Virus record (IMG/VR): IMGVR_UViG_3300036860_000563
Coordinates: 64,001-94,290 of that record
Reading direction: 5' to 3' (one strand)
Source of the DNA: a virus
Lineage: Duplodnaviria > Heunggongvirae > Uroviricota > Caudoviricetes
Length of the DNA: 30,290 bases
Shown here: positions 3,606 to 29,433 of the stretch, piece by piece
Layout of the letters: each line of letters begins with the position of its first letter
Numbering within the stretch: position 1 is the stretch's first letter
Position numbers and translations under genes: made by a program
Notes under the pieces: model-generated
Told to the model about the DNA's origin: nothing
The model's input: the letters and a program-made list of their open reading frames with translations, nothing else
Databases searched by the model: none

Positions 3606-6600
3606 GTGACGGAACCGCTCGACGTCGAGTACGTGGAGCTGCGCGCCAGCGGCACGCAGGACACGGTCGGTGACGTCAACGCGGCACTTAAGATCATTAT
3701 ACGTGAGATTAAGAAGGCCGCGCGCACCATCGAGCGGGAGCTGTCGAGCGCTGCGCGTGACGCCGGTGCGGCGCTGGCCGAGGACGTCGGTGCGGGTGCG
3801 CAGGTCGCGCAGTCCGAGGTTGACGACATGGCCGATCACATCGTCCGCGACATGAAGCGCGTTGAGCGTGAGGCACACGACGCGGCGCGTGCCGTCGCCG
3901 GCGTCGGGCTCGCGGCGAAACTGACCACCACGTTACGTGGTCTGGTGTCGCTCGGCGCCGGCTTCACGTCGATCGCACTCGTGAGTGTTAAGTTCACGGT
4001 GATACTGGCGGGACTCGCTGCGATCGTAGGCGCCGTGGCGGTGGCGGTGGTCGGGCTCACGTCCGCGGTGGCCGGTCTCGTGCCACTCGTGGGTGGACTC
4101 GTCGCCGCGCTCGGAACCGCGAGCGGTGTTCTCGTGGTGCTTCCCGGTGTTATCGCGACGCTCATCGGCGTCATCGCGACGCTGAAGGTGGGCCTACACG
4201 GCGTCGGTGACGCGCTCAAGGCGGTCGCATCCGGTGACGTGAACAAGCTCAATGAGGCGATCAAGGACCTCGCACCGAGCGCCCAGCAGTTCGTCCGGGT
4301 CGTCGCGTCATTGCAGGATGAGCTTAAGGCGCTGCGACTCGACGTACAGAACCGACTCTTCCGTGACGTCGGTGTGACGCTTAAGCTGCTGGCCGAGACG
4401 ACGTTGCCGTCCGTGCGAGAGGGCCTTGATCACATCGCTGACGCGCTCAACACCGTCGTCATCGAGGCCATCAACGAGCTAAACGTCGCGGTCAACCGGA
4501 CGCGACTTGATGAGATCTTCGTCAACATCGCGAAGACGGTGCGCAGCCTCGGTGTGGTGCTCGCCCCACTGGGTCGCGCGCTCATCGCCGTCATCGGTGT
4601 CGGCACGGGTGTCCTGGCCGACCTGACACTCGGGCTAGGCGAGAGCATCAGTAGCCTCGCGGATAAGATCACCGTGCTCGCCGAGACCGGCGAGCTGCGA
4701 CGGATCTTCGAGGACGGTCTGGTCGCGGCGGGGCAGTTCTTACACCTCGCCACCGACGTTCTCGGCATCATTCACGGCATCTTCACGGCGGCCGGTGGTG
4801 GCAACTCCGGCATCTTCTCGTTCTTTACGAGACTCAACGAACTCGTCAACCGACCCGACGTCCAGGCGTCGCTCAACCGCATCTTCGTCGCGCTCTCACA
4901 GCTCGGGCGAGAGCTGACGCCGGTGCTCGTCGCACTCGCGCGAGCGCTCGGCCCCGTCGCGCGTGCTCTCGTGGACGTCGCCGAGGCGTTCGCGCCAACT
5001 CTCATCACGTTAGTTACCGCGCTGGGCGACGCGCTCGCGTCACTCGCACCGGCGTTCATCGCGCTAGCACCGCTGGTGACGGTGCTCGCGAGCGGGTTGG
5101 TGCCACTCGCCGACGTTCTCGTCGGGTTGGTGACCGGCGCCGCACCCGGGTTGGCGGCGCTGCTCAACGGCATCGTCAGCGCGTTGCAGGTGCTCGCACC
5201 GGTCGCGTTCACGGTAGGCAGCGCGCTGGGTGAGGTCGCCGCGAGCATCGGACAGGCGCTCATACCCGTCGCACACATCATCGCCGACCTGCTCGTCGCG
5301 ATCGCGCCGAGCGCGGTGATACTCTTCGCCGCTCTCGCCGACGGGCTCGAACGGCTCGCACCCGTCGCACCGATCGTGGGTCAGGCGCTCGGAGCTTTAC
5401 TGAACGCACTCGCACCGTTGCTACCCGCCCTCGGCACAGCGCTCGCGAACGCGCTGACGATCGCGGCTGGGTTGCTCGCCGAGGTGTCCGACGTGCTCGG
5501 ACCGCTCGTCGGCCTGGTCTTCGACGCGTGGCGAGCGTTCGGAGAGCAACTCACACCGGTGTTGCTTAAGTTAATCAGCACCGCGCTGCCGGGTCTCGCG
5601 CAGCTCGCCGTGGACATCACGCAAGCGTTCGCACCGCTCATCCCGGTGCTGAGTGAGATCGCCCAGCAGTTCACGCAGGCGCTGCTGCCGGTCCTGCCAG
5701 GACTCGTCGTCATCGTGCAGGGAGCGCTGCTGCCCGCCGTGAAGTTACTCGCCGAGTCACTCGGGCGAGAGCTGCTGGACGCGTTAAGAGCGATCATGCC
5801 GTTCTTACCCACGCTCATCGACGCCGGTGTGCAGCTCGCGGTGACGTTCGCTCGGTTCTTCGTCGCGATCGCACCGCTGCTACCGCCGCTGATCCAGCTG
5901 TCCGCGCTGTTCACCGAGGTGCTGCTACACACCGGTGCGCTGCAGGCGGGCATGTTGATCCTCATCGGTGGGGTGGTGCTGCTGACGCTCGGGTTACGCC
6001 TGATAACGATCGTCATCTCCGCCGTCGTCACCAGTCTCAAGGTCATTGGTGGTGCCGTCGCGACGTTCGCGAGCGCGATCAGCGGCAGCTTCACCAACGC
6101 GGTGACGTTCATCGAGAACCTACCGGGAAAGATCGTCTCTGCGGTGGGCAACCTCGGTCACATCTTGTTCGACGCGGGTAAGTCCGTCGTGCGGGGGTTG
6201 ATCGACGGCATCAAGGACTCGCTTGGTGCGCTCAAGGACACGCTCGGCAACGTCGGCAAGTTCATCACCGATCACAAGGGTCCACGTGACGTCGACCGGC
6301 AGCTACTCACCCCGGCGGGTCACAGCATCATTGGTGGGCTCATCACCGGTATTCGTGACGCGCTACCCGGGTTACGGGATGAGCTGACGGGACTTACGGC
6401 GAGTGTGCCACTACTACTCAACGCCACCGGTGTAGGAAACGGCGTTGGAAGCGGTGGCGCGAGTACGGGTGGTGGGCAGACGATAACGGTCAACGTCGGT
6501 AACGTCTCGTTTGGTGGAGCACCAACACCGCAAGAAGCGCTCAAGGCCGGTGAGGCCGTGGGTCGTGGCATCGCGGCGGCACTCACCCAGCGGACACCAC

Positions 6601-6623
6601 CGACGCGGCTACGAACGATCTAA
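3606..6623 (+). CDS. Tape measure protein
   Basis: 1005 aa, Ala/Leu-rich amphipathic repeats (APL..ALG.AL), N-terminal 'VEYVELRA' and C-terminal 'TITVNVGNV'; follows the TAC. Confidence 0.9.
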   Translation: MTEPLDVEYVELRASGTQDTVGDVNAALKIIIREIKKAARTIERELSSAARDAGAALAEDVGAGAQVAQSEVDDMADHIVRDMKRVEREAHDAARAVAGVGLAAKLTTTLRGLVSLGAGFTSIALVSVKFTVILAGLAAIVGAVAVAVVGLTSAVAGLVPLVGGLVAALGTASGVLVVLPGVIATLIGVIATLKVGLHGVGDALKAVASGDVNKLNEAIKDLAPSAQQFVRVVASLQDELKALRLDVQNRLFRDVGVTLKLLAETTLPSVREGLDHIADALNTVVIEAINELNVAVNRTRLDEIFVNIAKTVRSLGVVLAPLGRALIAVIGVGTGVLADLTLGLGESISSLADKITVLAETGELRRIFEDGLVAAGQFLHLATDVLGIIHGIFTAAGGGNSGIFSFFTRLNELVNRPDVQASLNRIFVALSQLGRELTPVLVALARALGPVARALVDVAEAFAPTLITLVTALGDALASLAPAFIALAPLVTVLASGLVPLADVLVGLVTGAAPGLAALLNGIVSALQVLAPVAFTVGSALGEVAASIGQALIPVAHIIADLLVAIAPSAVILFAALADGLERLAPVAPIVGQALGALLNALAPLLPALGTALANALTIAAGLLAEVSDVLGPLVGLVFDAWRAFGEQLTPVLLKLISTALPGLAQLAVDITQAFAPLIPVLSEIAQQFTQALLPVLPGLVVIVQGALLPAVKLLAESLGRELLDALRAIMPFLPTLIDAGVQLAVTFARFFVAIAPLLPPLIQLSALFTEVLLHTGALQAGMLILIGGVVLLTLGLRLITIVISAVVTSLKVIGGAVATFASAISGSFTNAVTFIENLPGKIVSAVGNLGHILFDAGKSVVRGLIDGIKDSLGALKDTLGNVGKFITDHKGPRDVDRQLLTPAGHSIIGGLITGIRDALPGLRDELTGLTASVPLLLNATGVGNGVGSGGASTGGGQTITVNVGNVSFGGAPTPQEALKAGEAVGRGIAAALTQRTPPTRLRTI

Positions 6624-6654
6624 TCACTCAAGTGACCGACGACCGGAGGAACTC

Positions 6655-7371
6655 GTGAGCCTCACCGCCGACCAGGGACTGATCATACCTAACTCGTCCG
6701 ACAACGACAACGTGCCGCTCTCCGTGTCGGATTACAACACCGGCGTTGAGTCACGGTTGGTGAAGCGATACGCGTCTGTGGCCGACCGAACGGCGCGCAA
6801 CGCGACGCCCACCGAGGGTGAGCTGTCGTACCTGCTGGACCTGAACCGGTTTGACTTCTACTCCGGTGCGGCGTGGACGACGCTGCAGTCATCACTCGTA
6901 GCGCAACCCATCACCGTCACGGTGAAGACGGCGACCGAGTCGGTCGTCAGCAGCACGACGATGCAGAACGACAACGACTTCTTCTTCTCGGCGGCCGCCA
7001 GCTCGACGTACAAGGTCGAGCTGGACCTGTTCATCAGCGGTCCCAACGGGTCATCCGTCGGTGAGATCCTGTGTCAGTGGACCGTGCCGACGAGCACCAC
7101 GTCCGACTTTGGAATCATGTCACAGGACTGGGGGCTGGCCAGCGGTGCGATCGGTTCCGTCAACCTGCAGGCCGGACACTCGACGGGCACCACCACGGCC
7201 ACGGTGCTACTGGGCACCTCGGTCTTTCAGTGCTACGCCCGGGTAAGCGCTGTGTTCCGCGTCGGTGGCACGGCCGGTACGATTCAGTTCCAGTGGGCAC
7301 AGAACACCAGCAACGCGACGGCGAGCAACATCCTGGAGGGTTCGAGTATGACGATCATCAAGGTCTCGTGA
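6655..7371 (+). CDS. Minor tail protein
   Basis: The start was re-called to GTG 6655 (SD GGAGGA at 6645-6650). It has the motif 'RYASVADRTARNATPTEGELSYL' and a C-terminal beta-sandwich ('QNDNDFFF...TYKVELDL...QFQWAQN'). Confidence 0.7.
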   Translation: MSLTADQGLIIPNSSDNDNVPLSVSDYNTGVESRLVKRYASVADRTARNATPTEGELSYLLDLNRFDFYSGAAWTTLQSSLVAQPITVTVKTATESVVSSTTMQNDNDFFFSAAASSTYKVELDLFISGPNGSSVGEILCQWTVPTSTTSDFGIMSQDWGLASGAIGSVNLQAGHSTGTTTATVLLGTSVFQCYARVSAVFRVGGTAGTIQFQWAQNTSNATASNILEGSSMTIIKVS

Positions 7372-7375
7372 CGAG

Positions 7376-8866
7376 ATGTCATCACTCGTAGCAACACCCG
7401 ACCTCGACAACGCCGCCGTCGCCGTCGTCATCGACGACGTCTACGCGCGTGACACGTTCACTCGCACGGTCTCCAACGGGTGGGGCACCGCCGACACCGG
7501 ACAGACCTGGACGATCATTGAAGGCACCGCGGCCGACTTCGCCGTCAACGGCACACTGGGCACGATGACACACAGCGCGACGAACGCGTCGCACAGCATC
7601 ATCCTCCCCCCGAGCCGGGTGGACGTGGACGTTCGCATCAACGTAGAGCACAACATCGGGAGTGTGGCCGGTGGTAACTTAGTCGCCTTCTTCGACTTCC
7701 GGATGATCGACATCAACAACCTGTATCGGTTGTACGTTCGGTGGAAGCCGGCGGGCGTCGCCACCGTCGAGCTGATAAAGTTGATCGCAGGCACCTCTAC
7801 GACGATCGCCGGTGAGACGGTGATCCCCGGTGTCACCGCTACGAGCTCACTCACAGTTCGAGTGCGGGTGACTGGGACCGTCATCACCGGTGTGCGACTG
7901 TTGGCGAACGCGTGGCTCTCAACACAGCCCGAGCCAGCGTGGCTGTTGAGTGCCGTTGACTTCACCTTCGGCGCTCTCGGTGACCTTCGAGTCGCGTCGT
8001 TCCGCGACACCGGCAACACCAACAACCCAACTGTGTTTCGGTTCGACAACCTCACCGTGGCGATACCGGAGCCGGTGCACGTGTCACGGGTATACCCGAA
8101 CGCCACCGAGGCCGAGGTGCTCGGTTCACCGTTTTACACCTCGGGTGGTCTCGCCGTGCTGTGGGACACGGTCATGCCACTCGACGTACCGGTGTTCTAC
8201 GTGGCTCGCGCGGACGGCTCAACTGTGATCAGCCTAACGTCAAACACGGTCACTGTGACCGGGCAGGGCGACGGTTGGTTGAGAGATCCTGAGCAACCCA
8301 TCTACGACGTGCACCTCGTGGACTGCTCACGCAGTTGTCCCATCACCGTCTCACTAGGTGTCGTCAGCCGGCAGGCCGAGCTTCAGGCACTCGACCCAGC
8401 GGCGCTCAGCTCGGCCAATGGCACGTTCCCGATCATCGACGCGGCGCGCTCTCGGACGGTGTCACAGACGCGCAAGGCGAGAAGTCTCGCGCTTCACATA
8501 CTTACGATGACACTCGCACAGGAGCAAGGTGTTGTGAACGTGCTCGCGTCGGGCCGTGTGTTGTTCTTGCAACTTGCTCACCTCTACGGTTGGGCGTACG
8601 ACAACTGGGCGTCGGACTACGTCGACGTCGGAGACGTGGTGGACGCACGAGTGGGAACACAGAACATGCTCTTACCGCAGCGAACGTGGTCACTACCACT
8701 GAGACTCGCGCGAGCACCCACCGTCACGTCCGGTCACCTAGCCGGTAACGGGATCGGAGTGAGTGGCACCACGTACGGCGACGGCACGGCGTCCGGTCGC
8801 ACGTATCAAGATCGCATTAACCTACCCAACACGTACCTAGACACGTCGCTCGGGGTGGGTCTCTAG
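7376..8866 (+). CDS. Distal-tail (Dit)-like minor tail protein with inserted lectin-like domain
   Basis: The segment 'DTFTRTVSNGWGTADTGQTW' ... 'FRFDNLTV' (ConA-like) is followed by 'LWDTVMPLDVPVFY', 'DGWLRDP' and 'R...WSLPL', characteristic of actinophage Dit-like proteins. Confidence 0.55.
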   Translation: MSSLVATPDLDNAAVAVVIDDVYARDTFTRTVSNGWGTADTGQTWTIIEGTAADFAVNGTLGTMTHSATNASHSIILPPSRVDVDVRINVEHNIGSVAGGNLVAFFDFRMIDINNLYRLYVRWKPAGVATVELIKLIAGTSTTIAGETVIPGVTATSSLTVRVRVTGTVITGVRLLANAWLSTQPEPAWLLSAVDFTFGALGDLRVASFRDTGNTNNPTVFRFDNLTVAIPEPVHVSRVYPNATEAEVLGSPFYTSGGLAVLWDTVMPLDVPVFYVARADGSTVISLTSNTVTVTGQGDGWLRDPEQPIYDVHLVDCSRSCPITVSLGVVSRQAELQALDPAALSSANGTFPIIDAARSRTVSQTRKARSLALHILTMTLAQEQGVVNVLASGRVLFLQLAHLYGWAYDNWASDYVDVGDVVDARVGTQNMLLPQRTWSLPLRLARAPTVTSGHLAGNGIGVSGTTYGDGTASGRTYQDRINLPNTYLDTSLGVGL

Positions 8867-9942
8867 TGTGGCCCACGTCCCAGGCACTGCTCAACGCACT
8901 GATCACCGATCACGAGATGGACGTCACCGTCAACGTCATACGAGGTGAGCAATCACTCGGTCAGGTGCCGATCGTGGCGTGTAGCGTGGACGCGACACTA
9001 CTTACCCAAGATGGGCGCACCGCATCACTCGTCGTGGACCAAGGAGTGATCGACGACGGGTTGCTCGATCCGCTCTCGGACACCGTGGTTATTCGTACCG
9101 GTGTTTCCGACGTCGAACTGGTGCCGATCTTCACCGGCCGTGTCGACGCACACGCGGCCGGGAGCGACGGTGACGTCACCGTCGCGTGCGTCTCCCGTGC
9201 GGTTGAGCTGACGCGAGCTCGGTTTGAGACACCTATGTCGGCGCGACCCGGTGCACTCATCCGGGATGAGATTCAACGTCTCGTGCAGGACGTCGACCCG
9301 GCGTGGTCGGTGGACGTGAGTGTGGCGCGTCCTGACCGCGTACCAGACTCACTACTCTGGGAAGAAGATCGCAGTGGCGCCGTCGATGAGCTCGCTACGT
9401 CGCTCAACTGCATCTTAATGCCCAACCGCGTTGGTGGGTTCATACTCGTGCCGTCTCGCTTTGCGGAGGGCGCGAACGTCACACCGGTGGCGACACTCCG
9501 TGACGGCGAGAACGGGGTGCTCGTCAAGATCGACTCAGTTAAGTCACGGCGTGACATCGCCAACTCAGTCACAGTTGTCGTAGAGCGCACCGACGGAACG
9601 TCACCGATTCGCATCACGGTGCGAGACACCAACCCGGCCAGTCCGACGTTCTGGGGCGGTGTGTTTGGTAAGCAGAACGTCGTGCTCAAGCTCGACTCAC
9701 CGAGCTCGACGTTGGAGGCGAGTGTCATCGCATCACGGGTTCTACGACAGTCACTCGCCGTGGCACGGACGTGGCGCATCACGCTACCCCACTACCCGGT
9801 GCTCGACCCGGGTGACGTCATCGTCATCTGGCACCGTGGTGAACCGTTCACACAGGTTATCGAGTCGGTGCGGTACTCGGGAGGTGCGAGTGAACCCACG
9901 GTGCTCGCGGCGCGTGAGCTCATCGTCGCACCCACTCCCTAG
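8866..9942 (+). CDS. Baseplate hub / Tal-like minor tail protein (DUF5047-like)
   Basis: Starts 'MWPTSQALLNAL...H'; has 'PIFTGRV', 'LWEEDRSGAVDELATS', 'NSVTVVVE', 'FWGGVFG' and 'P.LDPGDVI'. The start overlaps the upstream stop by one base. Confidence 0.7.
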   Translation: MWPTSQALLNALITDHEMDVTVNVIRGEQSLGQVPIVACSVDATLLTQDGRTASLVVDQGVIDDGLLDPLSDTVVIRTGVSDVELVPIFTGRVDAHAAGSDGDVTVACVSRAVELTRARFETPMSARPGALIRDEIQRLVQDVDPAWSVDVSVARPDRVPDSLLWEEDRSGAVDELATSLNCILMPNRVGGFILVPSRFAEGANVTPVATLRDGENGVLVKIDSVKSRRDIANSVTVVVERTDGTSPIRITVRDTNPASPTFWGGVFGKQNVVLKLDSPSSTLEASVIASRVLRQSLAVARTWRITLPHYPVLDPGDVIVIWHRGEPFTQVIESVRYSGGASEPTVLAARELIVAPTP

Positions 9943-9960
9943 GTGATGAGGCAGCGGTGT

Positions 9961-9977
9961 GATGATGATGATGATGA
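9961..9977. repeat. (GAT)5 microsatellite in intergenic spacer
   Basis: gatgatgatgatgatga lies between the tail gene and the first glycosyltransferase. Confidence 0.85.
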
Positions 9978-10006
9978 AGTGCTGCACCTCCTAGTAGAGT
10001 AACACT

Positions 10007-15061: not shown

Positions 15062-16129
15062 GTGAAGGTCTACGTCTACCCAGCGGATGAGACGGGCTGT
15101 GGTTACTACCGGCTGATCTGGCCCGCGCGAGCGCTGCGTGAACGTGGACACGACGTCGTCGTCGTCATGCCGCGTGACCGCGGTGACAGCATCCAGGGTG
15201 TGATCCGTGGTGACCAGCTCGTCGACGTGCACCACCCACCGGACGCCGACGTCATGGTGCTGCAGCGCGTTACACATCGTCACATAGTCGAGGGCGTTAA
15301 GATCCTAAGAGATAAGGGCGTCACCGTCGTCGTGGACATCGATGATGACCTGGCCACCATTCACCCGACGAACCCAGCGTTCATCGCGATGCACCCGCAA
15401 CACGGGCGCACCGGTGATCACAGCTGGCAGAACACCCAGCGGGCCTGTGAGAACGCCACACACGTAACCGTGTCCACCAGCGCGCTGCTAACGCGCTACG
15501 CCTCACACGGACGCAGCACGGTACTGCGCAACTGCGTTCCCGCTCGGTACCTGAGCGTCCCGCACACCGACTCAACGGTGATCGGCTGGGGTGGCTCCAC
15601 GCACTCTCATCCAGATGATCTGCAGATGATGGGAACCGCGATCACGCAGCTCACTCGTGACGGTCACACGTTTCGCGTCGTCGGGCCACTCGCGGGCGTT
15701 CGGTCGGCACTTCACTTAGACGCTGAGCCGAGCTTCACCGGGTCCGTGGATCTGCTCTCGGCCTGGCCCGAGACGCTGGGTCAGCTCGGGATCGGGGTCG
15801 CACCACTCGCGGACAGCCGGTTCAACGAGAGTAAGAGTCACCTTAAACCGCTGGAGCTGGCGGCGCTCGGAGTGCCCTGCGTGATGTCTCCCCGGGCGGA
15901 GTACCGGAGACTCCACGAGCTCGGTGTTGGACTACTGGCCGAACGGCCCCGCGAGTGGCTACGCGTGCTACGCCGCCTGGTTGGGAGCGCTGAGCTACGC
16001 TCCGAGCTGTCCGAACGGGGCCGAGACGTCGCGCGTGAGTGGACCATCGAGGGCAACGCCGAGCGCTGGCTCGCCGCGTGGTCGACGGCGTACGAACGAT
16101 CGTCATTGTCACCGTTAGATCGTCCATGA
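15062..16129 (+). CDS. Glycosyltransferase, GT-B (GT4-like)
   Basis: Motifs 'GCGYYRL.WP..AL...GHDV', 'VVVDIDDDL', 'VTVST..L', 'IGWGGS..H' and 'IGVAPL....FNESKSHLKPLELAALGVPCVMS'. Confidence 0.8.
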   Translation: MKVYVYPADETGCGYYRLIWPARALRERGHDVVVVMPRDRGDSIQGVIRGDQLVDVHHPPDADVMVLQRVTHRHIVEGVKILRDKGVTVVVDIDDDLATIHPTNPAFIAMHPQHGRTGDHSWQNTQRACENATHVTVSTSALLTRYASHGRSTVLRNCVPARYLSVPHTDSTVIGWGGSTHSHPDDLQMMGTAITQLTRDGHTFRVVGPLAGVRSALHLDAEPSFTGSVDLLSAWPETLGQLGIGVAPLADSRFNESKSHLKPLELAALGVPCVMSPRAEYRRLHELGVGLLAERPREWLRVLRRLVGSAELRSELSERGRDVAREWTIEGNAERWLAAWSTAYERSSLSPLDRP

Positions 16130-20168: not shown

Positions 20169-21428
20169 TCATTGTATCATAAACTTTCGCCAGGCGTTTG
20201 TGACGTTGACGCACCACTCCCGCTCACCGATCGCGTCACCACGCCACGCACCGGGCTCACCGTCGAGCGCCCGGTAAACCCACTCACCGATCCAGCGACC
20301 GCACTGCACGGAGATTCCCTTGCCCCAGGTCGCCGACAGTCCCGACACCCCGCGCAGTGGTGCGATCTTCCAGTCATCTGGAAAGCCGAGCACGCGGGCG
20401 GCCTCACGGTGAGTGATCATTCGGTCGAGCCAGGGGTGAACCACCGTCACGAGTGAGCCACCCGTGATGACGCGCGCCGCACACTCGCCGTCCCAGCGCA
20501 CGGGAGTGGTGAAACCCATGCGAAACTCGTTCTTTACGATCTTCTCCTCGGTGGCCTGGAACGAGTCCGGCAGCCGGGCGTTGTCATCGTAGAACCGATG
20601 TGCGACGGTGGAGATGGACTCACCGGGGCGCCACTCCACACCACGGAGCAGGTCACCGACGCGACGCGTTAGGGGGGTGTGCAGCCCGACGTGACCGTCC
20701 ACCACACCACTAGGTGACCGCAGCGGCTCGGCCCAGCGGCTCGCGGGCGCGCGGTACGACTGGGCACCCCACGACTCACCCAGCGGTGCTAGGTCACTAA
20801 TGACGTCGTTGAGCGCCGGCAGACGCCGAGGCTCGGGTGGTTCGATCCCGAACGGCACACGTGAGATGAGCCAGAAGTAGCGTCGCCGCTGGGCGGCACC
20901 GCCCACCGAGTACGCGTTGTGAAGCACGTGATGTAGGTCCCACCGGTGACCGGTGCGCTCCTCGACGCGCGCGCGCAGCCGGCGCATGAGCTCGAGACCG
21001 TCCGGTTTGGTGAACGCTTGTTGGACGCTTTCAAATGCTATGATGTACGGATCGCATTTGATGGCGTAGTCGACGAACGCCCACGTGCAACCGAGGATGC
21101 TGGACTCAGCACCACGAAAGTCTTTTGCGCTCATTACACTCCACGCACTGCAGGGCGGGTTTCCCACAACTACATCGGCTCGTACCGGTGTCCACGCCTC
21201 GTGTGGAACTGCCTCGTAGGTCCAGTTTTTACCGAGCACGTGTCGGTTAGTGAGACAGCTGGATAGTCCGAACCCACCCTTCATCTCGGCACGGTGAATG
21301 AGACGAAATCCGGCCTGCACCATGCCGGTGTCGAAGCCACCGGCGAACGTCTGACATCCTACGTAAGTATACAACGTTATCGCCGCTTTTAGCTCTGCGT
21401 AACGCCGCACTTGTGACGACTTACCCAC
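20169..21428 (-). CDS. DNA cytosine-C5 methyltransferase-fold protein with divergent motif I (start uncertain)
   Basis: Motif IV 'VVVGNPPCSAWS', VI 'FESV', VIII 'AQRRRRYF', IX 'RMITHREAARVLGFPDDW' and X 'WGKGIS'. Motif I reads GCQTFAGGFDTG rather than DLFxGxGG. Confidence 0.85.
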   Translation of the reverse strand: MGKSSQVRRYAELKAAITLYTYVGCQTFAGGFDTGMVQAGFRLIHRAEMKGGFGLSSCLTNRHVLGKNWTYEAVPHEAWTPVRADVVVGNPPCSAWSVMSAKDFRGAESSILGCTWAFVDYAIKCDPYIIAFESVQQAFTKPDGLELMRRLRARVEERTGHRWDLHHVLHNAYSVGGAAQRRRYFWLISRVPFGIEPPEPRRLPALNDVISDLAPLGESWGAQSYRAPASRWAEPLRSPSGVVDGHVGLHTPLTRRVGDLLRGVEWRPGESISTVAHRFYDDNARLPDSFQATEEKIVKNEFRMGFTTPVRWDGECAARVITGGSLVTVVHPWLDRMITHREAARVLGFPDDWKIAPLRGVSGLSATWGKGISVQCGRWIGEWVYRALDGEPGAWRGDAIGEREWCVNVTNAWRKFMIQ

Positions 21429-21865
21429 GTGGGGCTTGACGTAAATTCACACCATTGACACGTCTTACGTGTGAGTTGTGCTACACGAACCGCGTCTCTT
21501 ACGCGCTGTGGTCTCTGTTTGCCGTACATAGGATTAAGTACGCCGGGACTCCCCTTCTTTGCGTTAACTTCTTGAGAGAACTTCATACCGTTTGTCGGAG
21601 ATGGTCGATCCTTATAATTTACATGACGACGTCGAAGTTCGTCAGCGTCAGGTGCGTGATGTCGTTGATGACACCTAACATGTGTCATCACTACATTGCT
21701 AGGTGCGTCGTTCACCGCGTTATCATCTACGTGATGAACGTTACCGTCCCACTTTTCATGACCTATGACGGTAACTTTATCACCACAGAAAAAGCAAGAC
21801 CATGGTCCACTGTCGTGTGTCTCGTAGAACACATTCATCGTTCGTCGATGATTACGCGAACCCAT
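21389..21865 (-). CDS. HNH endonuclease with NUMOD3-like motif
   Basis: 'CFFCG...VHHVDDNAVNDAPSNVVMTHVRCHQRHH' and 'NPMYGKQRP'. It is more A+T-rich than its neighbours. Confidence 0.75.
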   Translation of the reverse strand: MGSRNHRRTMNVFYETHDSGPWSCFFCGDKVTVIGHEKWDGNVHHVDDNAVNDAPSNVVMTHVRCHQRHHAPDADELRRRHVNYKDRPSPTNGMKFSQEVNAKKGSPGVLNPMYGKQRPQRVRDAVRVAQLTRKTCQWCEFTSSPTWVSRHKCGVTQS

Positions 21866-21901
21866 GGTTAAATCTACTAGGATCTAAGACTGAGGGTCAG
21901 G

Positions 21902-22219
21902 TCAGTCTCTAAGGTATGGCCACACAACGTCGAACGAAAGACTCACACCACACGGACCACAGAACACCTTCTCGATACCACCGTGCGGTGAGTTGGCCTC
22001 GAGATCCGCGCTCTCAATGTCCGCGAGACAGCTAACAGTGTGTAAGACACCGAGCGCCGGATCGGCCGTTAGAGTGACAGCGTCGAGAACCGATGTGCTG
22101 AACGGCTCGAACAACTAGCGTGACGTTACGTCACAGTCAAGTGAGATGAGTGAGTACACCAGCTCATCAACTACTCGTTCACGCGCATCAAAACGCGTGG
22201 CGACGTAGGTGCGTATCAT
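21902..22219 (-). pseudogene. 105-codon ORF interrupted by a single in-frame TAG (22115-22117)
   Basis: ATG 22219 overlaps the dUTPase stop (ATGA). There are 34 codons, then TAG, then in the same frame the 70-aa ORF 21902-22114, whose TTG start lacks an SD. Confidence 0.45.
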
Positions 22220-22755
22220 ATCTTTGAATCACCGTTCAGCGAGTTGACGACGTCAAGCTCGAGCGGATGTGAGCACGGGCCGCACCACGCACCGACGAGT
22301 ACACCACTGAGCGATGACCGGGTCTTGATGACGTTGACGTCGTCGAGGGCGCGGCCACAGCCCGGGCACTTCGTCGAGTGACCGTCATAACCGTGACGCT
22401 GCCGAGCGACGTTAGCAGCGCGCTTCGCGTAGTACGTGTCGACGAACCTCACCGCGAGCTCGTCGGCTGTGTCACCTGGGTACGCCGCCCACGCGACGTT
22501 CATGATGAAGTGCCACGCGTCCACGAGCTCGTGAAGTAACCGGTCCGAGTGAACCGCACGCTCACCGATCGTCCACGACTTCCACGTCGTCTCGTCGAGC
22601 GCCTCGTGCAGCTCGTGAACCGCGGCGAGCACCATCTCTTTCACGTACGAGACGCGCTGATCGATCGTCATACTCGCAAACTCGTAGCCGAGTGTGTTTT
22701 CCTGCAGCTCCCGCTGGGCGGCCAACATCTCGGTGAGCTCACCAGGCCAAGGCAC
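22216..22755 (-). CDS. All-alpha dimeric dUTPase/MazG-like NTP pyrophosphatase with C-terminal CxxC..CxxC (alternative start 22773)
   Basis: 'ML..QRELQ', 'ELHEALDETTWKSW', 'ELVDAWHF' and 'Y.AK...N.ARQ..GY', followed by CPGC...CGPC. Confidence 0.8.
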   Translation of the reverse strand: MPWPGELTEMLAAQRELQENTLGYEFASMTIDQRVSYVKEMVLAAVHELHEALDETTWKSWTIGERAVHSDRLLHELVDAWHFIMNVAWAAYPGDTADELAVRFVDTYYAKRAANVARQRHGYDGHSTKCPGCGRALDDVNVIKTRSSLSGVLVGAWCGPCSHPLELDVVNSLNGDSKI

Positions 22756-23686
22756 GACGCACGCCCTTCTCAATCGAGATCTTCGCGGTGTGAAGCTCGT
22801 TCATGATCGTCGGGTCACCAACGCGGTGGGTTACACCCAGTGGTTGATCGGGGTCGACGAGCGTCACCGGCGCGTAGTCGACCTCCCGCTGGACGAGCAG
22901 TGCGAGGTCAAGTAGTGACGTACCGACCCCGGTGCACAGGTTGACCGGGCGACACTCATCGGCGTCGACGACCGCGAGCGCACCGTTCACCAGGTCAGAG
23001 ACGTGAATAAAGTCACGGGTCTGGTCAGCGCGTCCCCAGATCGTAAACGGATCTTCACGTCGGCGCGCTCGCTCCACGAACGCGCGAAACGGAAAGTTCT
23101 CCGACTGATCCTCACCGTAGCCGGAGAACGGTCGTACGATGTGAACCGGTAACCCGTTCCGCTGGGCGATGACCGCCTGCAACTCACCTACGTACTTCGT
23201 CCACCCGTACGTCCGGTCGGGCACCCGCACCGGTGAGTCATCGAGCGCGTCGGCGAGGTCGACGTACGCGTCAACCTCATGCAGCCTGGTGTCGATGAAC
23301 TCGTCGGTCTGCAGCGCCACCGGGTAGATCGCCGATGACGAGACGTAGAGTAGTCGCCGCTGGTGTGTGTACATCGCCCAGGAGAAGATCGCCGCGTCCA
23401 GTGCGACGTTGTATGAGAAGTTAGCGTTCACGGCGTCGATCGCGGCCCGGTGCGGCTCGCGTGCGGCGCAGTGAACGACGAGATCGAACACGGTGCTGGT
23501 GTTTACACGGCAGAAGTTGTGAGCATCCTGCATCACGTGAATTCGACTCACGTGGTTGGGAAACCAAGAAACGTCAACCCGTTCGAGGTCCACCGAGGTG
23601 ACGAACCAACCACGACGCTCTAGCTCGTCACTAAAGTGTCGACCGAGGAAACCGGCACCACCGGTAACGAGTGCGGTCTTAGTCAT
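22739..23686 (-). CDS. NAD-dependent NDP-sugar epimerase/dehydratase (extended SDR)
   Basis: The start was re-called to ATG 23686. Motifs 'ALVTGGAGFLG', 'VVHCAA', 'YVSSSAIY', 'YGWTK', 'RPFSGYG' and 'QTRDFIHVSD'. Confidence 0.9.
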   Translation of the reverse strand: MTKTALVTGGAGFLGRHFSDELERRGWFVTSVDLERVDVSWFPNHVSRIHVMQDAHNFCRVNTSTVFDLVVHCAAREPHRAAIDAVNANFSYNVALDAAIFSWAMYTHQRRLLYVSSSAIYPVALQTDEFIDTRLHEVDAYVDLADALDDSPVRVPDRTYGWTKYVGELQAVIAQRNGLPVHIVRPFSGYGEDQSENFPFRAFVERARRREDPFTIWGRADQTRDFIHVSDLVNGALAVVDADECRPVNLCTGVGTSLLDLALLVQREVDYAPVTLVDPDQPLGVTHRVGDPTIMNELHTAKISIEKGVRRALAW

Positions 23687-23687
23687 G

Positions 23688-24749
23688 TCACAGAGCTCCC
23701 AGCGCCTGCAGGTCGGTGAGCCACGCCTCAAAGCCGTCACGCGTCTGATCGGGAAGCCACGGGAGTTCGTCCAGCGCCGAGTAGCACCGGGTGATGAAGT
23801 CACCGAGCTCGGCGCTGGACCAGTCCTCATTCGTACTTTCATCACCGAACGTGACGTCACGCAGGACAGCGCAGAGTTCCTCGGTGTGACGCATACCGAA
23901 CAGCTCCGCGTCGAGGTCCGCGAAGATGTCGTGCTCGTTGCGCGTCTGCGTCACGAGAGGCTCACCGTACCACACGAGGTAACCCAGGTGGTCCATGACG
24001 CACCGCGCGAGGTACGATGCCCAGACGTCGTCATAGCGACCAACTCCCGGCCAGACCATCATCAACGGCGCGAGTTCCGCCCGGTACGCGACGGCCTGTG
24101 AGTTGAACGGCGCCCACGTGCCGGGTGCCAGTGCGGCACCCGGGTGCCAGTGCGACGACATGCGGTCGGTGGCTACACGACCGAGCGCGAGACGCGTCGC
24201 CGCGTCGACGTCCGGGTCACCACGCCACAGGGACGCGTGTACCCCGACCGGCAGAGCGTCGTGCACCTCGGTGAACACGTGAATCTCATCTCGCTGGGTG
24301 ATGGGAAAACCTCGGTGAAACGTCGAGGCGCCGAACATCACCAGCGGGTTGAACCAGCCCGACGAGCTGTCGATGATCACCGTCGCGTCGGTGGTGGCCT
24401 CCGACAGCGCTCGGTGAACCATCCCCCACTGGTCGGCCTCATCCGGCCAGTTGTCGTCGTCCACCGTCATGATCCACTCGGGTTTGAGCGCGATCGCCTC
24501 GAGCAGCGCGACGTTACGCCGCTGAACCGAGTTCCACCCGACGGCCTCACTCGTCTTCCACCCAAGCTGCGCGCTGGGCGCGAGGTAGCGGTTGTCGCCG
24601 GGCAGCTCGGCGAGCAGGTCGGTGACGGCCTCGTGCGGTGTGTTGCGGTCACCGGCGACGATGATGACGTCATCATCCATCATACCCGCCGCGCGCCACA
24701 TGCGTAGGTTCTTAGGAACGTTGATCGTGGTTGTGATGAGAGCGCGCAC
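23688..24749 (-). CDS. RGP/STELLO-like (GT75-related) nucleotide-sugar mutase or glycosyltransferase
   Basis: The start was re-called to GTG 24749 (AGGAG 8 nt upstream). Motifs 'ITTTIN', 'VAGDRNTP', 'RRNVALLEA', 'TVDDDN', 'RGFP', 'LWRGDPDVDA..RL', 'PFNSQ', 'GRYDDVW' and 'Q.RNEH...DL..E'. Confidence 0.75.
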   Translation of the reverse strand: MRALITTTINVPKNLRMWRAAGMMDDDVIIVAGDRNTPHEAVTDLLAELPGDNRYLAPSAQLGWKTSEAVGWNSVQRRNVALLEAIALKPEWIMTVDDDNWPDEADQWGMVHRALSEATTDATVIIDSSSGWFNPLVMFGASTFHRGFPITQRDEIHVFTEVHDALPVGVHASLWRGDPDVDAATRLALGRVATDRMSSHWHPGAALAPGTWAPFNSQAVAYRAELAPLMMVWPGVGRYDDVWASYLARCVMDHLGYLVWYGEPLVTQTRNEHDIFADLDAELFGMRHTEELCAVLRDVTFGDESTNEDWSSAELGDFITRCYSALDELPWLPDQTRDGFEAWLTDLQALGAL

Positions 24750-24760
24750 GTGCGTGGCTC

Positions 24761-24919
24761 CTAGTCGTAGAGAGTGTGATCGAGTATGATGAGACCGACA
24801 CCGATGACGATCGCGATGAGTGCGAGATACCACCTGTCCGGAGCGAAGCAGAGCATGCCGCCACCGCCGGCGATGAACACGCCACCTACGGCGTTAAGGT
24901 CTATGACGTCACGGGCCAC
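24761..24919 (-). CDS. Small 52-aa membrane protein (not in ORF track)
   Basis: GTG 24919 has GAGGAG upstream and TAG at 24761-24763. It reads VARDVIDLNAVGGVFIAGGGGMLCFAPDRWYLALIAIVIGVGLIILDHTLYD and exactly fills the gap between two operon genes. Confidence 0.5.
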   Translation of the reverse strand: MARDVIDLNAVGGVFIAGGGGMLCFAPDRWYLALIAIVIGVGLIILDHTLYD

Positions 24920-26415: not shown

Positions 26416-27045
26416 TTAGAACGGCGGCTCCGGTGGCGCCGATGACGGTGTCGCCGGTGGTCCGGGCACCGACGCCGGTGACGTTGGCATCGCCGGCGAC
26501 GTCGGCATCGGTGATGACGGTGACGTCACTCCGGCCACCGGCCAACCGCTCAGCGACGGTACTGGAGCCGGCGAGCCACCCACCGGCGGAGTCGGTAGCG
26601 CCGGACCAGCAACGCCACCGGGGAGAGCCGCACCGGCGACTCCGCTGGGCGCCAGCAGCTTGATCTCGTTGCGTGGAACTCCCTGCCACTCGCGCACCCC
26701 GGTCTGGGCTCGCGCGCGCCGGTTGAGCAGCGCCGTCGCGACGTGTGCTAGTCCCTGGCCACCGAGCTGTGAGAAGAACACGCCGTCGAGTCCGAACGCC
26801 GCCATGTGACGGAAGAAGATGCTGAGCGCGAAGCCGTTGTCCGGCGACAGCACGAACTGGTTGAAGAGCTGCCGGCCCGCGAAGGGACCCGACTTCACCT
26901 CCATGACGACCTTGATCATCTCCGAGCCGGTGGACGCGAACGTCGCGTCCGCCTTGATGATCTCGACGTCGTACCAGTCGTCGGGCAGTGGCTTCGTCGC
27001 GTCCTCGGCGGTCTTACGCAGGCTGCTCCAGTCGATCTCACTCAT
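26416..27045 (-). CDS. DUF669-like ssDNA-binding protein
   Basis: SD GGAGG. Motifs 'PLPDDWYDVEI..A....STGSEMIK...EV..GPFAGRQLF', then a Pro-rich tail ending PPF. Confidence 0.7.
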   Translation of the reverse strand: MSEIDWSSLRKTAEDATKPLPDDWYDVEIIKADATFASTGSEMIKVVMEVKSGPFAGRQLFNQFVLSPDNGFALSIFFRHMAAFGLDGVFFSQLGGQGLAHVATALLNRRARAQTGVREWQGVPRNEIKLLAPSGVAGAALPGGVAGPALPTPPVGGSPAPVPSLSGWPVAGVTSPSSPMPTSPAMPTSPASVPGPPATPSSAPPEPPF

Positions 27046-27079
27046 GCGGTGAGAACCTCCCTAGTCGTGGTGAAGATGA

Positions 27080-27865
27080 TCATTTTAGGGACGAGGGTGA
27101 CGACGGTGACTCGCCGAACACCTGCGTCATCATACGTGTGATGTGTGGGTCATCGATGACGTCGGGCAACGCTCCCTGAACGCGCTCACCCGCGATGATG
27201 GACGGCACCACACCCTCGCCGATGAGGAGCTTCTTCAGCTTACCGGTCGACTGGCCGTTCGCGTCCTGGGTGAGCTCGGTGTACAGGTAACCGCAGATGT
27301 CGACCCAGTAGGGTAGCGCGCGACCGATCTGGCCCTGCATCGCGGGACGCCACGCGCCGTCCTTGAACTCGGTCTCGGCGATGAACACAACGCAGCGTAG
27401 TGGGTTGGGCTCCGGCAGCAGCACCAGGTCACGCATGCTCCTGATGAGCATGTCCATGTGTACGAGCAGGTCGCCCCAGTCTTGGATCCGGAGCTGCTCG
27501 GTGCCGCGAAGCTGCATCTTCAACTTTCGCTGTGACTCGGTGACGGAGTCGAGCACCAGCGAGTGAAAGTCGTGCGCGTCGACGTGTGAGAGCCACTGGT
27601 AGGCCTGCGTGAGTGTGCTCCACTTTCTCACCATGACGTGACAGAAGTCCCACGTGCCGTCGTAGCGCGGTGGCGGTCCCTGGAGTGGGTCCCACTCGAT
27701 GCGCCGAAGTGGCACGCCGGACCGGTAGCCGGCCTCTCTCACGTACTTCCAGCCACCCTCCGCGTCGAGAACGCAGATGGGTGGTGGCGCGGTCGTGCTG
27801 AGAGTGGACTTACCGACCTTGGCGGACGAGTGAATGAGTAGTGACGTCGTCTCGTATGAGCTCAA
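27080..27865 (-). CDS. AAA_24 / Sak4-like ATPase
   Basis: Walker A variant 'SSAKVGKST', 'VLDAEGG', Walker B 'LVLDSVT', 'DWG' and 'FIAE'; sits between the exonuclease and the SSB. Confidence 0.8.
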   Translation of the reverse strand: MSSYETTSLLIHSSAKVGKSTLSTTAPPPICVLDAEGGWKYVREAGYRSGVPLRRIEWDPLQGPPPRYDGTWDFCHVMVRKWSTLTQAYQWLSHVDAHDFHSLVLDSVTESQRKLKMQLRGTEQLRIQDWGDLLVHMDMLIRSMRDLVLLPEPNPLRCVVFIAETEFKDGAWRPAMQGQIGRALPYWVDICGYLYTELTQDANGQSTGKLKKLLIGEGVVPSIIAGERVQGALPDVIDDPHITRMMTQVFGESPSSPSSLK

Positions 27866-29433
27866 GTAGCTGCCCCGTCTTCACCGTCGCTCGTGATTAA
27901 GTCACGTGTGTAGTAGCTAAGTGGGTCATCTTTCACGTAGAGCCGCGACATGGCGTCCTCGACTCTCGAGTTATCATCCATCATACCACAAGTCGCGAAG
28001 AACGGACACTTCCACGCGCAGTCACGCGTGGGTCGCGGGTACGCGACGTTGAGGTGATGCTCGCCGTCGTCGAGACGATGACGAACCGCCGCGACGTCAC
28101 GTACGGTCGCGGTGAGTCTCCGACGAAACGACGCAACCTCGTGCGCGTTGTGGTGCACCTCAACTCGCTGGTAGAAGGGTGGTTGGGCCGTCGGACCTCG
28201 CTTAACACGTCGGAGCATGTTGTAGAGCGCGCCGACGACTCGTGGTTCTCCACGAGCTTGAAGATCCTCTACGAGCGTCTGGTGCAGCACCTGCTCATCG
28301 AGGTGCAACGTGCGAACCGCGGCCGCGAGGCTCATAACGGTTTTATGCTCAAGCCAGAGGCGCACGCCGTCGTAAGAGCGTCGTACTCGCGCGTCCAGCT
28401 TAGCGATGATCTTCGTGGGTTCATCGACGCCGGGCAGCTCAGCCTCGAGGTACGCCTCCGGCTCGACGATGACGTACTCGGCGTCCGCACCGGTCTCGGC
28501 GAGCCACTCGACGTACCCAGCCAACACGGCGCGCTCGAGGTTGGCGTCGCTCTCAAACCGCTTAACCAACTCGCGGTCGAGGAACACCTCGTCGGCGTCA
28601 CGCTCGGCCACGAGAGCGGTCCAGTCCTCGACGATGAGACGCTCCAGCGCGTCACGGGGATCGGTTCGCTGGGTAACACCGTCATCGGGAACGTACCACC
28701 GCCGCAGTACCCGGTGAACTCGGTCTCCGACGGCGCGTGGGCCGACGGGTGACTCTCTCACGGGCCTCAGCCCCCGGTACCAACCGAGGTACCAGCGGCG
28801 ACGGCAGTCCTTGAACGTCTGCACCTCGCTGTTCGCGTACCGCCGGTAACCGTCGATCGCCGAGAGTGCTGTGGGCGACACACCGGTGTACGACACCGGT
28901 GCACGAACCGACTCGGACGAGTCATCGTCAAGCATAGGTGTGAACGGTGTGTCGTCGTCGACGGCGGTGATGACACTCACGGGCTGAGTGGTAGCCGACT
29001 CAGAGAAGATGGCGTGAACGCCGACGTCTGGGTTGGCGTCCACCACCGCGTGTCGTTCGTCGACATCACTCAGCCCGTGAGTGTCGTCTTCACTACCGTT
29101 CCTACCGTCCACATCATCCACTGGTCGTGGTGCTGGACTCGCCGTTGCATCTGCTTCTACTGCTACTGCTACTGCTACTGCTACTGCTACTACCCGTTCT
29201 TCGGCGCTCTGTGATATCCCCGGTACCGGCTCGGCCGGCGTCGGATGTGCCACAGCGGCAGCGACCTGGCGAATCGCCGCAGCTTCTTCGTCACTTACTA
29301 CCCTACCCTTCTCGATGTTGAACACCTTGGCCGGTGTGAGACCCGTGAGTGAAGCGAGGCGCGCTCGTGAGTGCGTCTCACGAAGCCGTGTGATGATCTC
29401 GTGGGGAGTTTCGGCGTGAGAGAGCTCGGTCAC
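27862..29433 (-). CDS. Cas4/RecB-like PD-(D/E)XK exonuclease with N-terminal HTH and low-complexity linker
   Basis: 'SEVQTFKDCRRRWY', 'GDRVH..L', 'KLDA', 'LEHKT' and 'CAWKCPFFATC' (4-Cys Fe-S staple). The N-terminus 'SRARLASLTGLTPAKVFNIEKG' is XRE-like. Confidence 0.8.
   Translation of the reverse strand: MTELSHAETPHEIITRLRETHSRARLASLTGLTPAKVFNIEKGRVVSDEEAAAIRQVAAAVAHPTPAEPVPGISQSAEERVVAVAVAVAVAVEADATASPAPRPVDDVDGRNGSEDDTHGLSDVDERHAVVDANPDVGVHAIFSESATTQPVSVITAVDDDTPFTPMLDDDSSESVRAPVSYTGVSPTALSAIDGYRRYANSEVQTFKDCRRRWYLGWYRGLRPVRESPVGPRAVGDRVHRVLRRWYVPDDGVTQRTDPRDALERLIVEDWTALVAERDADEVFLDRELVKRFESDANLERAVLAGYVEWLAETGADAEYVIVEPEAYLEAELPGVDEPTKIIAKLDARVRRSYDGVRLWLEHKTVMSLAAAVRTLHLDEQVLHQTLVEDLQARGEPRVVGALYNMLRRVKRGPTAQPPFYQRVEVHHNAHEVASFRRRLTATVRDVAAVRHRLDDGEHHLNVAYPRPTRDCAWKCPFFATCGMMDDNSRVEDAMSRLYVKDDPLSYYTRDLITSDGEDGAAT
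29161..29190. repeat. (TGCTAC)5 perfect hexamer repeat encoding (Val-Ala)n in the exonuclease linker
   Basis: tgctac x5 at 29161-29190, with degenerate flanking copies. Confidence 0.9.

Follow-up and report, generated by a model that had tools for sequence, protein, structure and literature searches.

The methyltransferase-like gene and its cofactor pocket

The gene with which this study is concerned lies in a stretch of 30,290 nucleotides, called the window below, which forms bases 64001-94290 of the IMG/VR virus record IMGVR_UViG_3300036860_000563 (Caudoviricetes). The record is 94,290 bp long and rated 100% complete by CheckV; its GC content is ~63% and its gene content is of actinophage type, with WhiB, lysin A-type lysis genes and a replication block like that of Gordonia and Micrococcus phages, while megablast returned no near-identical phage record. 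Along the minus strand, the window encodes in order a helicase, a PD-(D/E)XK nuclease, an AAA_24 protein, a DUF669 protein, a protein of 449 amino acids (aa), an RGP-like protein (PF03214), an NAD epimerase, a nucleoside triphosphate (NTP) pyrophosphohydrolase of the dUTPase_2/MazG type (MazG below), a small open reading frame (ORF) together with an HNH gene, the gene under study, a small helix-turn-helix protein and lysis genes. The product of the gene under study, hereafter the MT-like protein, belongs to a family uniformly annotated 'methyltransferase'. Our analyses suggest that it has the fold of C5-cytosine DNA methyltransferases (MTases) and keeps the residues that attack cytosine, and that its site for S-adenosylmethionine (SAM) has been remodelled.

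The ORF translates to 419 aa when it is opened at GTG 21428. The likely start is TTG at 21374, which yields 401 aa, because the N-termini of homologs and the position of this TTG, 14 nt past the stop of the inserted HNH gene, both point to it. The protein matches Pfam PF00145 with an E-value of 1.9e-13 and a score of 51 bits (cut-off 22 bits). An AlphaFold2 (AF2) model built on an alignment of 72 diverse homologs has a mean predicted local distance difference test score (pLDDT) of 95.7, and its top Foldseek matches are DNMT1, MET1, ZMET2, the prophage MTase 3g7u, M.HaeIII and M.HhaI, with a probability of 1.00 to DNMT1, HaeIII and HhaI; the catalytic domains of DNMT1, MET1 and ZMET2 are the best structural matches (E about 1e-18). 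The modelled fold is, with high confidence, that of a C5-MTase. An earlier reading of the window made from its letters alone (the sequence-only reading) had proposed this fold with an intact Pro-Cys and canonical motifs VIII and IX, and every string that it quoted was found in the translation.

The MT-like protein shares with M.HaeIII and M.HhaI (PDB 1dct, 3ubt, 6mht and others), its best PDB sequence matches, the fold, the motif order, the Pro-Cys, the Glu of motif VI, the RxR of motif VIII and motif IX. It differs from them in carrying QTFAGG, PCS, ESV and GK, in being found only in phages and in having no partner endonuclease, and identity is about 16-25%. The profile of the MT-like family also aligns to the target-recognition domain (TRD) and motif IX-X region of MET1 (59.5 bits), but unlike DNMT1, MET1 and ZMET2 the MT-like protein has no regulatory domains and its cofactor motifs are altered; the resemblance to DNMT1-type enzymes is one of TRD architecture and is no evidence of CpG specificity.

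Residue correspondences were taken from HMMER sequence and profile alignments to M.HaeIII and to MET1/DNMT1. The translation contains motif I as VGCQTFAGGFDTG, motif IV as VVGNPPCSAWS, motif VI as AFESVQQ, motif VIII as AQRRRYFW, motif IX as REAARVLGFPDDW and motif X as TWGKGISV. The Pro-Cys nucleophile is present in GNPPCS (Cys93), the RxR of motif VIII in QRRRYFW (Arg181/Arg183), and both Glu133 of motif VI and motif IX are kept, so that the protein is predicted to be catalytically competent. The positions expected to serve the cofactor read otherwise. Motif I is V-G-C-Q-T-F-A-G-G where the canonical motif is I-S-L-F-S-G-A-G-G: the GAGG of HaeIII aligns with FAGG, the Phe is replaced by Gln26 and the first Gly by Phe28, and the FxGxGG loop of PF00145 MTases is lost. 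Motif VI is FESVQ for AENVK, with Ser for the Asn of ENV, and motif X is WGKGI for IGNAV, with Lys370 at the Asn of the Gly-Asn pair of HaeIII and MET1/DNMT1. These three departures had been noticed in the sequence-only reading and are placed by the alignments at the positions it named; a fourth, PPCS for the canonical PPCQ in motif IV, goes beyond it. Judged by its sequence, the protein belongs to PF00145 through its fold and catalytic motifs and has lost the SAM-site features of motif I, the motif VI Asn and the motif X Asn. The acidic residue of motif II (Glu48) and two glycines of motif I (FAGG) are retained.

In C5-MTases, the methionine part of SAM is bound by motifs I and X and its ribose and adenine by motifs II and III. 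The altered positions of motifs I, IV and X line the pocket for SAM or for the transferable group, and we infer that the Asn of motif VI is located near that pocket. In M.HhaI, Gln82 (motif IV) and Asn304 (motif X) adjoin the transferable group; the Q82A change lowers methylation about 16-fold, and Y254S/N304A weakens binding of SAM 4-fold and of S-adenosylhomocysteine 60-fold (PMC3526304). The MT-like family is naturally changed at two of the three positions of the engineered M.HhaI Q82A/Y254S/N304A (PMC3526304), Gln82 being replaced by Ser and Asn304 by Lys. Likewise, the cationic pocket side chain of the carboxymethyltransferase M.MpeI N374K enables the use of carboxy-SAM (CxSAM) (PMC13288465). 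The engineered M.HhaI and M.MpeI variants keep motif I and still bind SAM analogues, unlike what is seen here. Use of CxSAM by the MT-like protein is a minor possibility: M.MpeI N374 could not be confirmed as the motif X Asn, and no CmoA-like CxSAM synthase was seen among the ORFs of the genome covered by our Pfam scan (40 of ~119, structural genes and most small ORFs lying outside it).

Conservation of the altered pocket in a phage family

An exhaustive HMMER search with the MT-like protein returned 169 clusters (50% identity) at E<=1e-30, which puts the family at no fewer than 169 clusters on hundreds of metagenomic contigs, and a word-index search returned 649 relatives. The motifs were counted in 72 diverse representatives, with identity down to 30%. 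The catalytic residues are close to invariant: Pro-Pro-Cys (Cys93) and Glu133 each in 71/72, Arg181 in 69/72, Arg183 and the R-E-x-x-R of motif IX each in 72/72. The switched residues are kept as strictly, with Phe or Leu at the first-Gly position (28) in 68/72, Ser94 in 64/72, Ser134 in 67/72 (otherwise, e.g., Cys) and Lys370 in 68/72, plus three representatives with Arg; they are also present in 78 IMG/VR members. As a control, the 23 nearest C5-MTases from 185,579 species genomes were aligned to the same profile, and all 23 are canonical wherever a motif aligned, with F(S/C)GxxG, PPCQ, ENV and GNAV. Because the variant residues are as conserved as the catalytic ones across the representatives and canonical in the cellular controls, the comparison indicates that the four pocket switches are a family signature and not chance or one-off decay. 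In this respect the sequence-only reading, which had called motif I degenerate, is extended: the variant is conserved among homologs, and the SAM-pocket motifs have changed in a conserved way while the catalytic motifs were kept.

The subgroup that resembles DSL-LC01 (one of the cultured or assembled phages considered below) goes further. Its motif I reads NGLA(G/A)FMS, its motif VI ECV and its motif X GKA, and the acidic residue of motif II, which binds the ribose of SAM and is found in 49/72 representatives, is deleted; PPCS and RxR are retained. Since this subgroup has dispensed with the Gly loop and the motif II Glu and kept the catalytic residues, the catalytic features appear to be under family-wide constraint and the SAM-binding features do not. 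On these alignments, selection would maintain the attack on cytosine C6 without maintaining the canonical SAM site. ESV and the Lys-Gly signature persist even in L187 and L177, the most distant members. ESV is missing in three degenerate members (P0194, P0225 and P0239), one of which, P0194, has Ile for the catalytic Cys; P0194 and P0225 lie directly after DUF669 without MazG or a glycosyltransferase (GT), and IMG/VR searches with these two gave no matches.

The family is known from cultured phages, namely the Gordonia phages GodonK, Phendrix, GMA2, Forza and Sixama and the Micrococcus phage Kurnik, and its single true member among the 185,579 species genomes sits on a 17.5-kb contig binned into a metagenome-assembled genome. 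We found no publication on the family or on the base composition of the phages that carry it. In two loci (L124:12738-14032 and L165:11071-12311) the gene is split into pieces of ~85-90 aa and ~325-337 aa, with the break just before the Pro-Cys motif, which could reflect a frameshift, a homopolymer sequencing error or programmed recoding.

These results bear on the most conventional explanation, that of an ordinary SAM-dependent 5-methylcytosine (5mC) MTase with an unusual but working SAM site, which would methylate leftover phage cytosines or host DNA at a short motif. Methylation is the default function of the fold, and PF00145 membership, the full set of catalytic motifs, the DNMT1-like TRD, Glu48 and the Gly-Gly of motif I are all in keeping with it; moreover, engineered HhaI Q82A/N304A variants methylate still, at a lower rate (PMC3526304). 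On the other hand, four pocket positions have been switched together throughout the family and in 0/23 of the nearest cellular MTases, one subgroup has neither the Gly loop nor the acidic residue of motif II, and the family does not occur in cellular restriction-modification contexts and co-occurs with cytosine replacement, which removes most of the self-substrate. A comparable case is offered by the phage C5-MT clades linked to TET/5mYOX enzymes: clades III-VI among them have divergent motifs IX and X, and methylation was not detectable for clades III and IV (Burke et al. 2021, PMC8256090). We therefore regard an ordinary methylase as unlikely, though as the most serious of the alternatives.

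The gene cluster and its relatives

The genes upstream of the MT-like gene are listed in Table 1, and their association with it could be followed through 80 IMG/VR loci. All 78 loci that could be scored have a MazG homolog immediately upstream of the MT-like gene, and in most of the 80 a GT gene stands between DUF669 and the MazG-MT pair; as the sequence-only reading had supposed, the family is linked to GT genes. Conversely, a search started from the T4 beta-glucosyltransferase-like (BGT-like) gene led back to an MT-like gene wherever enough sequence lay downstream. In Kurnik, GodonK and DSL-LC01, the order is one or more GTs, MazG, small ORFs and the MT-like gene, even though identity of the MT-like proteins is only 36-39%.

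Table 1. Features of the modification cluster and its surroundings, with positions in the window
Feature	Position	Strand	Evidence
Predicted C5-cytosine MTase-fold enzyme with remodelled cofactor pocket (P0001), MT-like gene	20169..21428	-	PF00145; AF2/Foldseek; motif census
HNH-type endonuclease ORF between MazG and MT-like genes	21389..21865	-	Cys/His-rich HNH-like motifs in translation
Small ORF beside HNH-type ORF	21902-22114		Position between MazG and MT-like genes
All-alpha NTP pyrophosphohydrolase (dUTPase_2/MazG type)	22216..22773	-	PF08761 E=2.2e-11; phrog_18650 dUTPase E=7e-26
NAD-dependent nucleoside diphosphate (NDP)-sugar epimerase/dehydratase	22739..23860	-	PF01370 E=1.5e-30; phrog_540 nucleotide-sugar epimerase
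RGP-like protein (UDP-arabinopyranose mutase family)	23688..24833	-	PF03214 E=8.2e-10
T4 beta-glucosyltransferase-like GT-B enzyme, 449 aa	24901..26250	-	AF2 pLDDT 86.8; six best Foldseek PDB matches all T4 BGT, E 3e-8 to 3e-7
DUF669, AAA_24 (RecA-like), PD-(D/E)XK exonuclease genes	26416..29433	-	Pfam; same order in relatives

The block between DUF669 and MazG is variable: it may contain other types of GT or a BGT-like gene, the latter sometimes accompanied by RGP-like, epimerase or nucleotidyltransferase genes. In the window, the BGT-like protein has no Pfam or PHROG match, and its similarity to BGT, suspected in the sequence-only reading, is borne out by the structural matches; on its model it is a candidate DNA glycosyltransferase. 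It has 713 homologs, many on contigs shared with the MT-like family. Pairwise comparison shows no similarity between it and the GTs of Kurnik, GodonK, DSL-LC01 or L011, and a single GT family common to all lineages was ruled out, the GTs of different lineages not being detectably related; the GT component is therefore interchangeable.

In L062, an 88-kb complete relative, the GT block is replaced (4928-9978) by genes for inositol-1-phosphate synthase, a HAD phosphatase, a homolog of amino acid:DNA transferases (PF18724) and a methyltransferase of the FkbM type, with MazG and the MT-like gene following; this block may serve a non-sugar cytosine hypermodification. No recognisable GT is found in the DUF669-MazG block of L069-L073, in which a 377-aa protein with a weak match to ThyX (PF02511) is encoded between MazG and the MT-like gene (L069:5785-6918); a ThyA-type homolog was not found in the two partial records of this group that were searched (about 53-55% complete). 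In the DSL-LC01-like subgroup, a pyrimidine-dimer DNA glycosylase of the T4 endonuclease V family is encoded directly after the MT-like gene (L003:10326-10832, L075:5032-5544).

No member of the cluster is more constant than the MT-like gene and MazG. As the MT-like gene persists where tailoring genes vary or are missing (L062, L069-L073), a role at the core of the system is indicated rather than one tied to BGT, and this suggests a function upstream of, or parallel to, tailoring.

As for the other genes of Table 1, the MazG-type protein is a candidate dCTPase analogous to T4 gp56, and the RGP-like protein, whose gene recurs next to the BGT-like gene in many related loci, is a candidate sugar-nucleotide mutase. 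The true start of the epimerase is probably internal, near MTKTALVTGGAGFLG. The conserved recombination block formed by the DUF669, AAA_24 and PD-(D/E)XK genes is the upstream border of the variable modification block. The HNH-type ORF, which has no Pfam match at E<=0.01, is probably a mobile insertion outside the pathway. The GC content of window positions 21001-22000 is 0.516 against about 0.63 elsewhere, and in most of the 80 related loci MazG and the MT-like gene are not separated by any full-size gene, which suggests that this ORF and the small ORF beside it constitute a recently inserted homing-type element.

Two further groups of genes lie away from the cluster. A plus-strand GT-B gene of the Glyco_trans_1_4 type closes the tail-gene operon (window 15062-16129), and behind its counterpart in L010 come additional GT-A genes together with an epimerase and a C-methyltransferase; this setting fits virion-protein glycosylation rather than DNA modification. 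Outside the window (G000:C1:9880-13768 and 25772-30491, G000 being the genome itself), there are genes for a generic 2-oxoglutarate-Fe(II) (2OG) oxygenase, a vWA-domain protein resembling TROVE/Ro60, a polynucleotide kinase-phosphatase, a nucleotidyltransferase of the RlaP type and a protein similar to ribosomal L7/L12 that bears collagen-like repeats, among which the kinase-phosphatase, RlaP and Ro60-like genes look like an RNA-repair set.

Probable origin of a modified cytosine and possible role of the MT-like enzyme

Elsewhere the genome encodes a family A DNA polymerase, a deoxycytidine monophosphate (dCMP) deaminase, a P-loop nucleotide kinase and a divergent thymidylate synthase (TS) homolog. 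The best PDB match of the latter (G000:C1:4736-5572) is the cytidine monophosphate hydroxymethylase MilA, and it has Asp at the positions of ThyA N177 (SPYDWF) and L143 (DYPC) together with the catalytic Cys. Asp at N177 with an acidic residue at L143 and the catalytic Cys identifies the dCMP hydroxymethylases, and also the newly described 5-hydroxy-dCMP synthases of RB69 and DLP3, whose 5-hydroxycytosine (5hoC) is then arabinosylated (PMC13326640). With a deoxynucleoside monophosphate (dNMP) kinase that matches phrog_761, the MazG protein (PF08761) and the BGT-like fold, the parts of a T4-type pathway would appear to be present. The TS homolog is also encoded by Kurnik, GodonK and DSL-LC01 and by 30 of the 35 long IMG/VR records with an MT-like gene, among them all 20 that are at least 90% complete, and Asp/Asp/Cys occupies the N177, L143 and catalytic positions in all 34 TS homologs examined from carrier genomes. 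When the search was run from the TS side, an MT-like gene was found in 18 of the 23 long records that hold this TS clade, and the exceptions include a distinct group of phages of 117-121 kb.

By analogy, 5-hydroxymethylcytosine (5hmC) or 5hoC very probably takes the place of cytosine in this phage at the nucleotide level and is then decorated, following the logic of T4 and RB69; the added sugar is possibly of the arabinose or furanose type, given the RGP-like mutase and the epimerase. The genome shares with the T-even glucosyl-hmC and RB69/DLP3 arabinosyl-5hoC pathways (PMC13326640) a TS homolog of the N177D plus L143D/E type, a dNMP kinase, a dCMP deaminase, an all-alpha NTPase, a BGT-like GT-B enzyme and NDP-sugar genes. 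It differs from them in that those pathways have no enzyme of the C5-MTase fold, and the word 'methyltransferase' occurs 0 times in PMC13326640.

Because the TS homolog, the dNMP kinase and the MazG-type NTPase make up the classical nucleotide-level route to 5-hydroxymethyl- or 5-hydroxycytosine, the GT needs no hydroxyl from the MT-like enzyme. This alters the earlier interpretation. The conserved change of the SAM pocket, the linkage to GTs and the BGT-like fold of the neighbour all stand, and what is not supported as stated is the idea that the MT-like protein supplies the hydroxyl on which the BGT-like enzyme depends, since that group would have a source in the TS homolog and since the MT-like gene is constant while tailoring genes vary. 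A TET route, in which 5mC would be oxidised to 5hmC, was rejected as a hydroxyl source: the TET/JBP domain PF12851 has no match in the 94-kb genome (the control search, without a match either, is uninformative), and the one 2OG oxygenase (G000:C1:9880-10731) gives a weak match of the generic PF03171 type, is not TET-like and lies far from the cluster. The family nevertheless recalls the phage C5-MT clades paired with TET/5mYOX enzymes (Burke et al. 2021, PMC8256090; Pyle et al. 2023, preprint 10.1101/2023.12.21.572611) in that a gene of the C5-MT family resides within cytosine hypermodification clusters that include GTs; the difference is that the hydroxyl handle here would come from a TS homolog and that PF12851, with the control just mentioned, gave no match.

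We favour, with a probability of roughly 0.55, the view that the MT-like protein is a pathway-linked enzyme acting on cytosine C5 and not a canonical SAM-dependent methyltransferase. It is best read as a core, phage-only part of a T4-like system for cytosine replacement and decoration, beside a TS-like dCMP hydroxymethylase or hydroxylase, a dNMP kinase, a candidate MazG-type dCTPase and variable DNA transferases. It is tempting to propose the following mechanism: Cys93 would add to C6 of a flipped cytosine while Glu133 protonates N3, and the activated C5 would react in a widened pocket that bears Lys370 and has ceased to hold SAM canonically. A non-methyl group of the one-carbon or aldehyde type, such as hydroxymethyl, could in this way be added after replication to cytosines that escaped replacement, which would complement the adjacent dCTPase candidate and feed the same glycosyltransferase. 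Such chemistry is within reach of the fold, as C5-MTases hydroxymethylate cytosine and derivatise 5hmC in atypical reactions, and hydroxymethylation is documented for M.HhaI (PMC7176277). Hydroxymethylation of escaped cytosines is our single best guess as to the reaction, albeit one that, taken alone, we consider rather unlikely to be correct.

Several observations weigh against the view that we favour. Adjacency of genes in a compact phage operon is no proof of a shared pathway, and a related group of phages of 117-121 kb has the TS-like gene without the MT-like gene. A modified base made by the TS route renders a second source at the DNA level redundant, and the Pfam scan revealed no gene for a SAM, folate, formaldehyde or alternative donor among the 40 of ~119 ORFs that it covered. 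As far as can be judged from the sequence, Glu48 and the two glycines of FAGG may allow a non-canonical mode of SAM binding, and the loss of motif III is of little weight since this motif is poorly conserved even among true MTases.

Another explanation takes the strict linkage of the gene to cytosine replacement as its starting point and sees in the MT-like protein a weapon against unmodified host cytosine. In the absence of SAM, the adduct between Cys and C6 would lead to hydrolytic C-to-U deamination or to covalent DNA-protein adducts, so that host DNA is marked for breakdown and the C5-substituted phage DNA is immune. C5-substituted bases cannot undergo the addition step, by which host and phage DNA would be told apart; C5-MTases are reported to deaminate C to U without SAM (PMC3804486), and the pyrimidine-dimer DNA glycosylase gene that follows the MT-like gene in the DSL-LC01-like group would suit such a role. 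The known deaminase side reaction is slow, however, no residue was identified that could activate water at C4, and phages usually degrade host DNA with nucleases, so that we think this explanation improbable.

Slightly less probable still is an action on the base that has already been modified. Attack of the Cys on 5hmC would generate an exocyclic methylene intermediate to which a nucleophile adds, giving a 5-(X-methyl)cytosine, with Lys370 protonating the leaving hydroxyl and the enlarged pocket accommodating the C5 substituent. M.SssI couples thiols to 5hmC in this manner (PMC7176277), the Q-to-S and N-to-S changes widen the space near C5, Lys is a plausible general acid, and the PF18724 homolog, inositol-1-phosphate synthase and HAD phosphatase that take the place of the GT in L062 imply substitution at the 5-CH2 carbon. 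Yet glycosylation of a hydroxyl by a BGT-type enzyme needs no such activation and the MT-like gene is nonetheless present in BGT clusters; moreover, no nucleophile donor was identified, and the chemistry would not apply if the TS homolog were a hydroxylase producing 5hoC. What probability remains falls to non-catalytic or unforeseen roles.

A broader claim than that of a pathway-linked cytosine-C5 enzyme can be put forward tentatively, and we think it likelier to fail than to hold: the MT-like proteins may be the first natural family to use the covalent mechanism of C5-MTases without transferring a SAM methyl group, whether as a DNA-level cytosine hydroxymethylase or alkylase, a 5hmC-derivatising enzyme or a cytosine deaminase. 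If so, the 'atypical' in vitro reactions of M.HhaI and M.SssI would correspond to real phage biology, and cytosine hypermodification would include a new post-replicative step. A new chemistry would add an enzyme class to DNA hypermodification, would explain an unassigned core gene of actinophage cytosine-replacement systems, and could offer a scaffold from nature for labelling DNA in a sequence-directed, SAM-independent manner, something for which only engineered MTases have served until now. If the protein is merely a divergent 5mC methylase, it would show how far the SAM site can drift within this fold, and it would raise the question as to why phages that replace their cytosine keep a cytosine methylase. 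Because cultured carriers exist, either outcome is directly testable.

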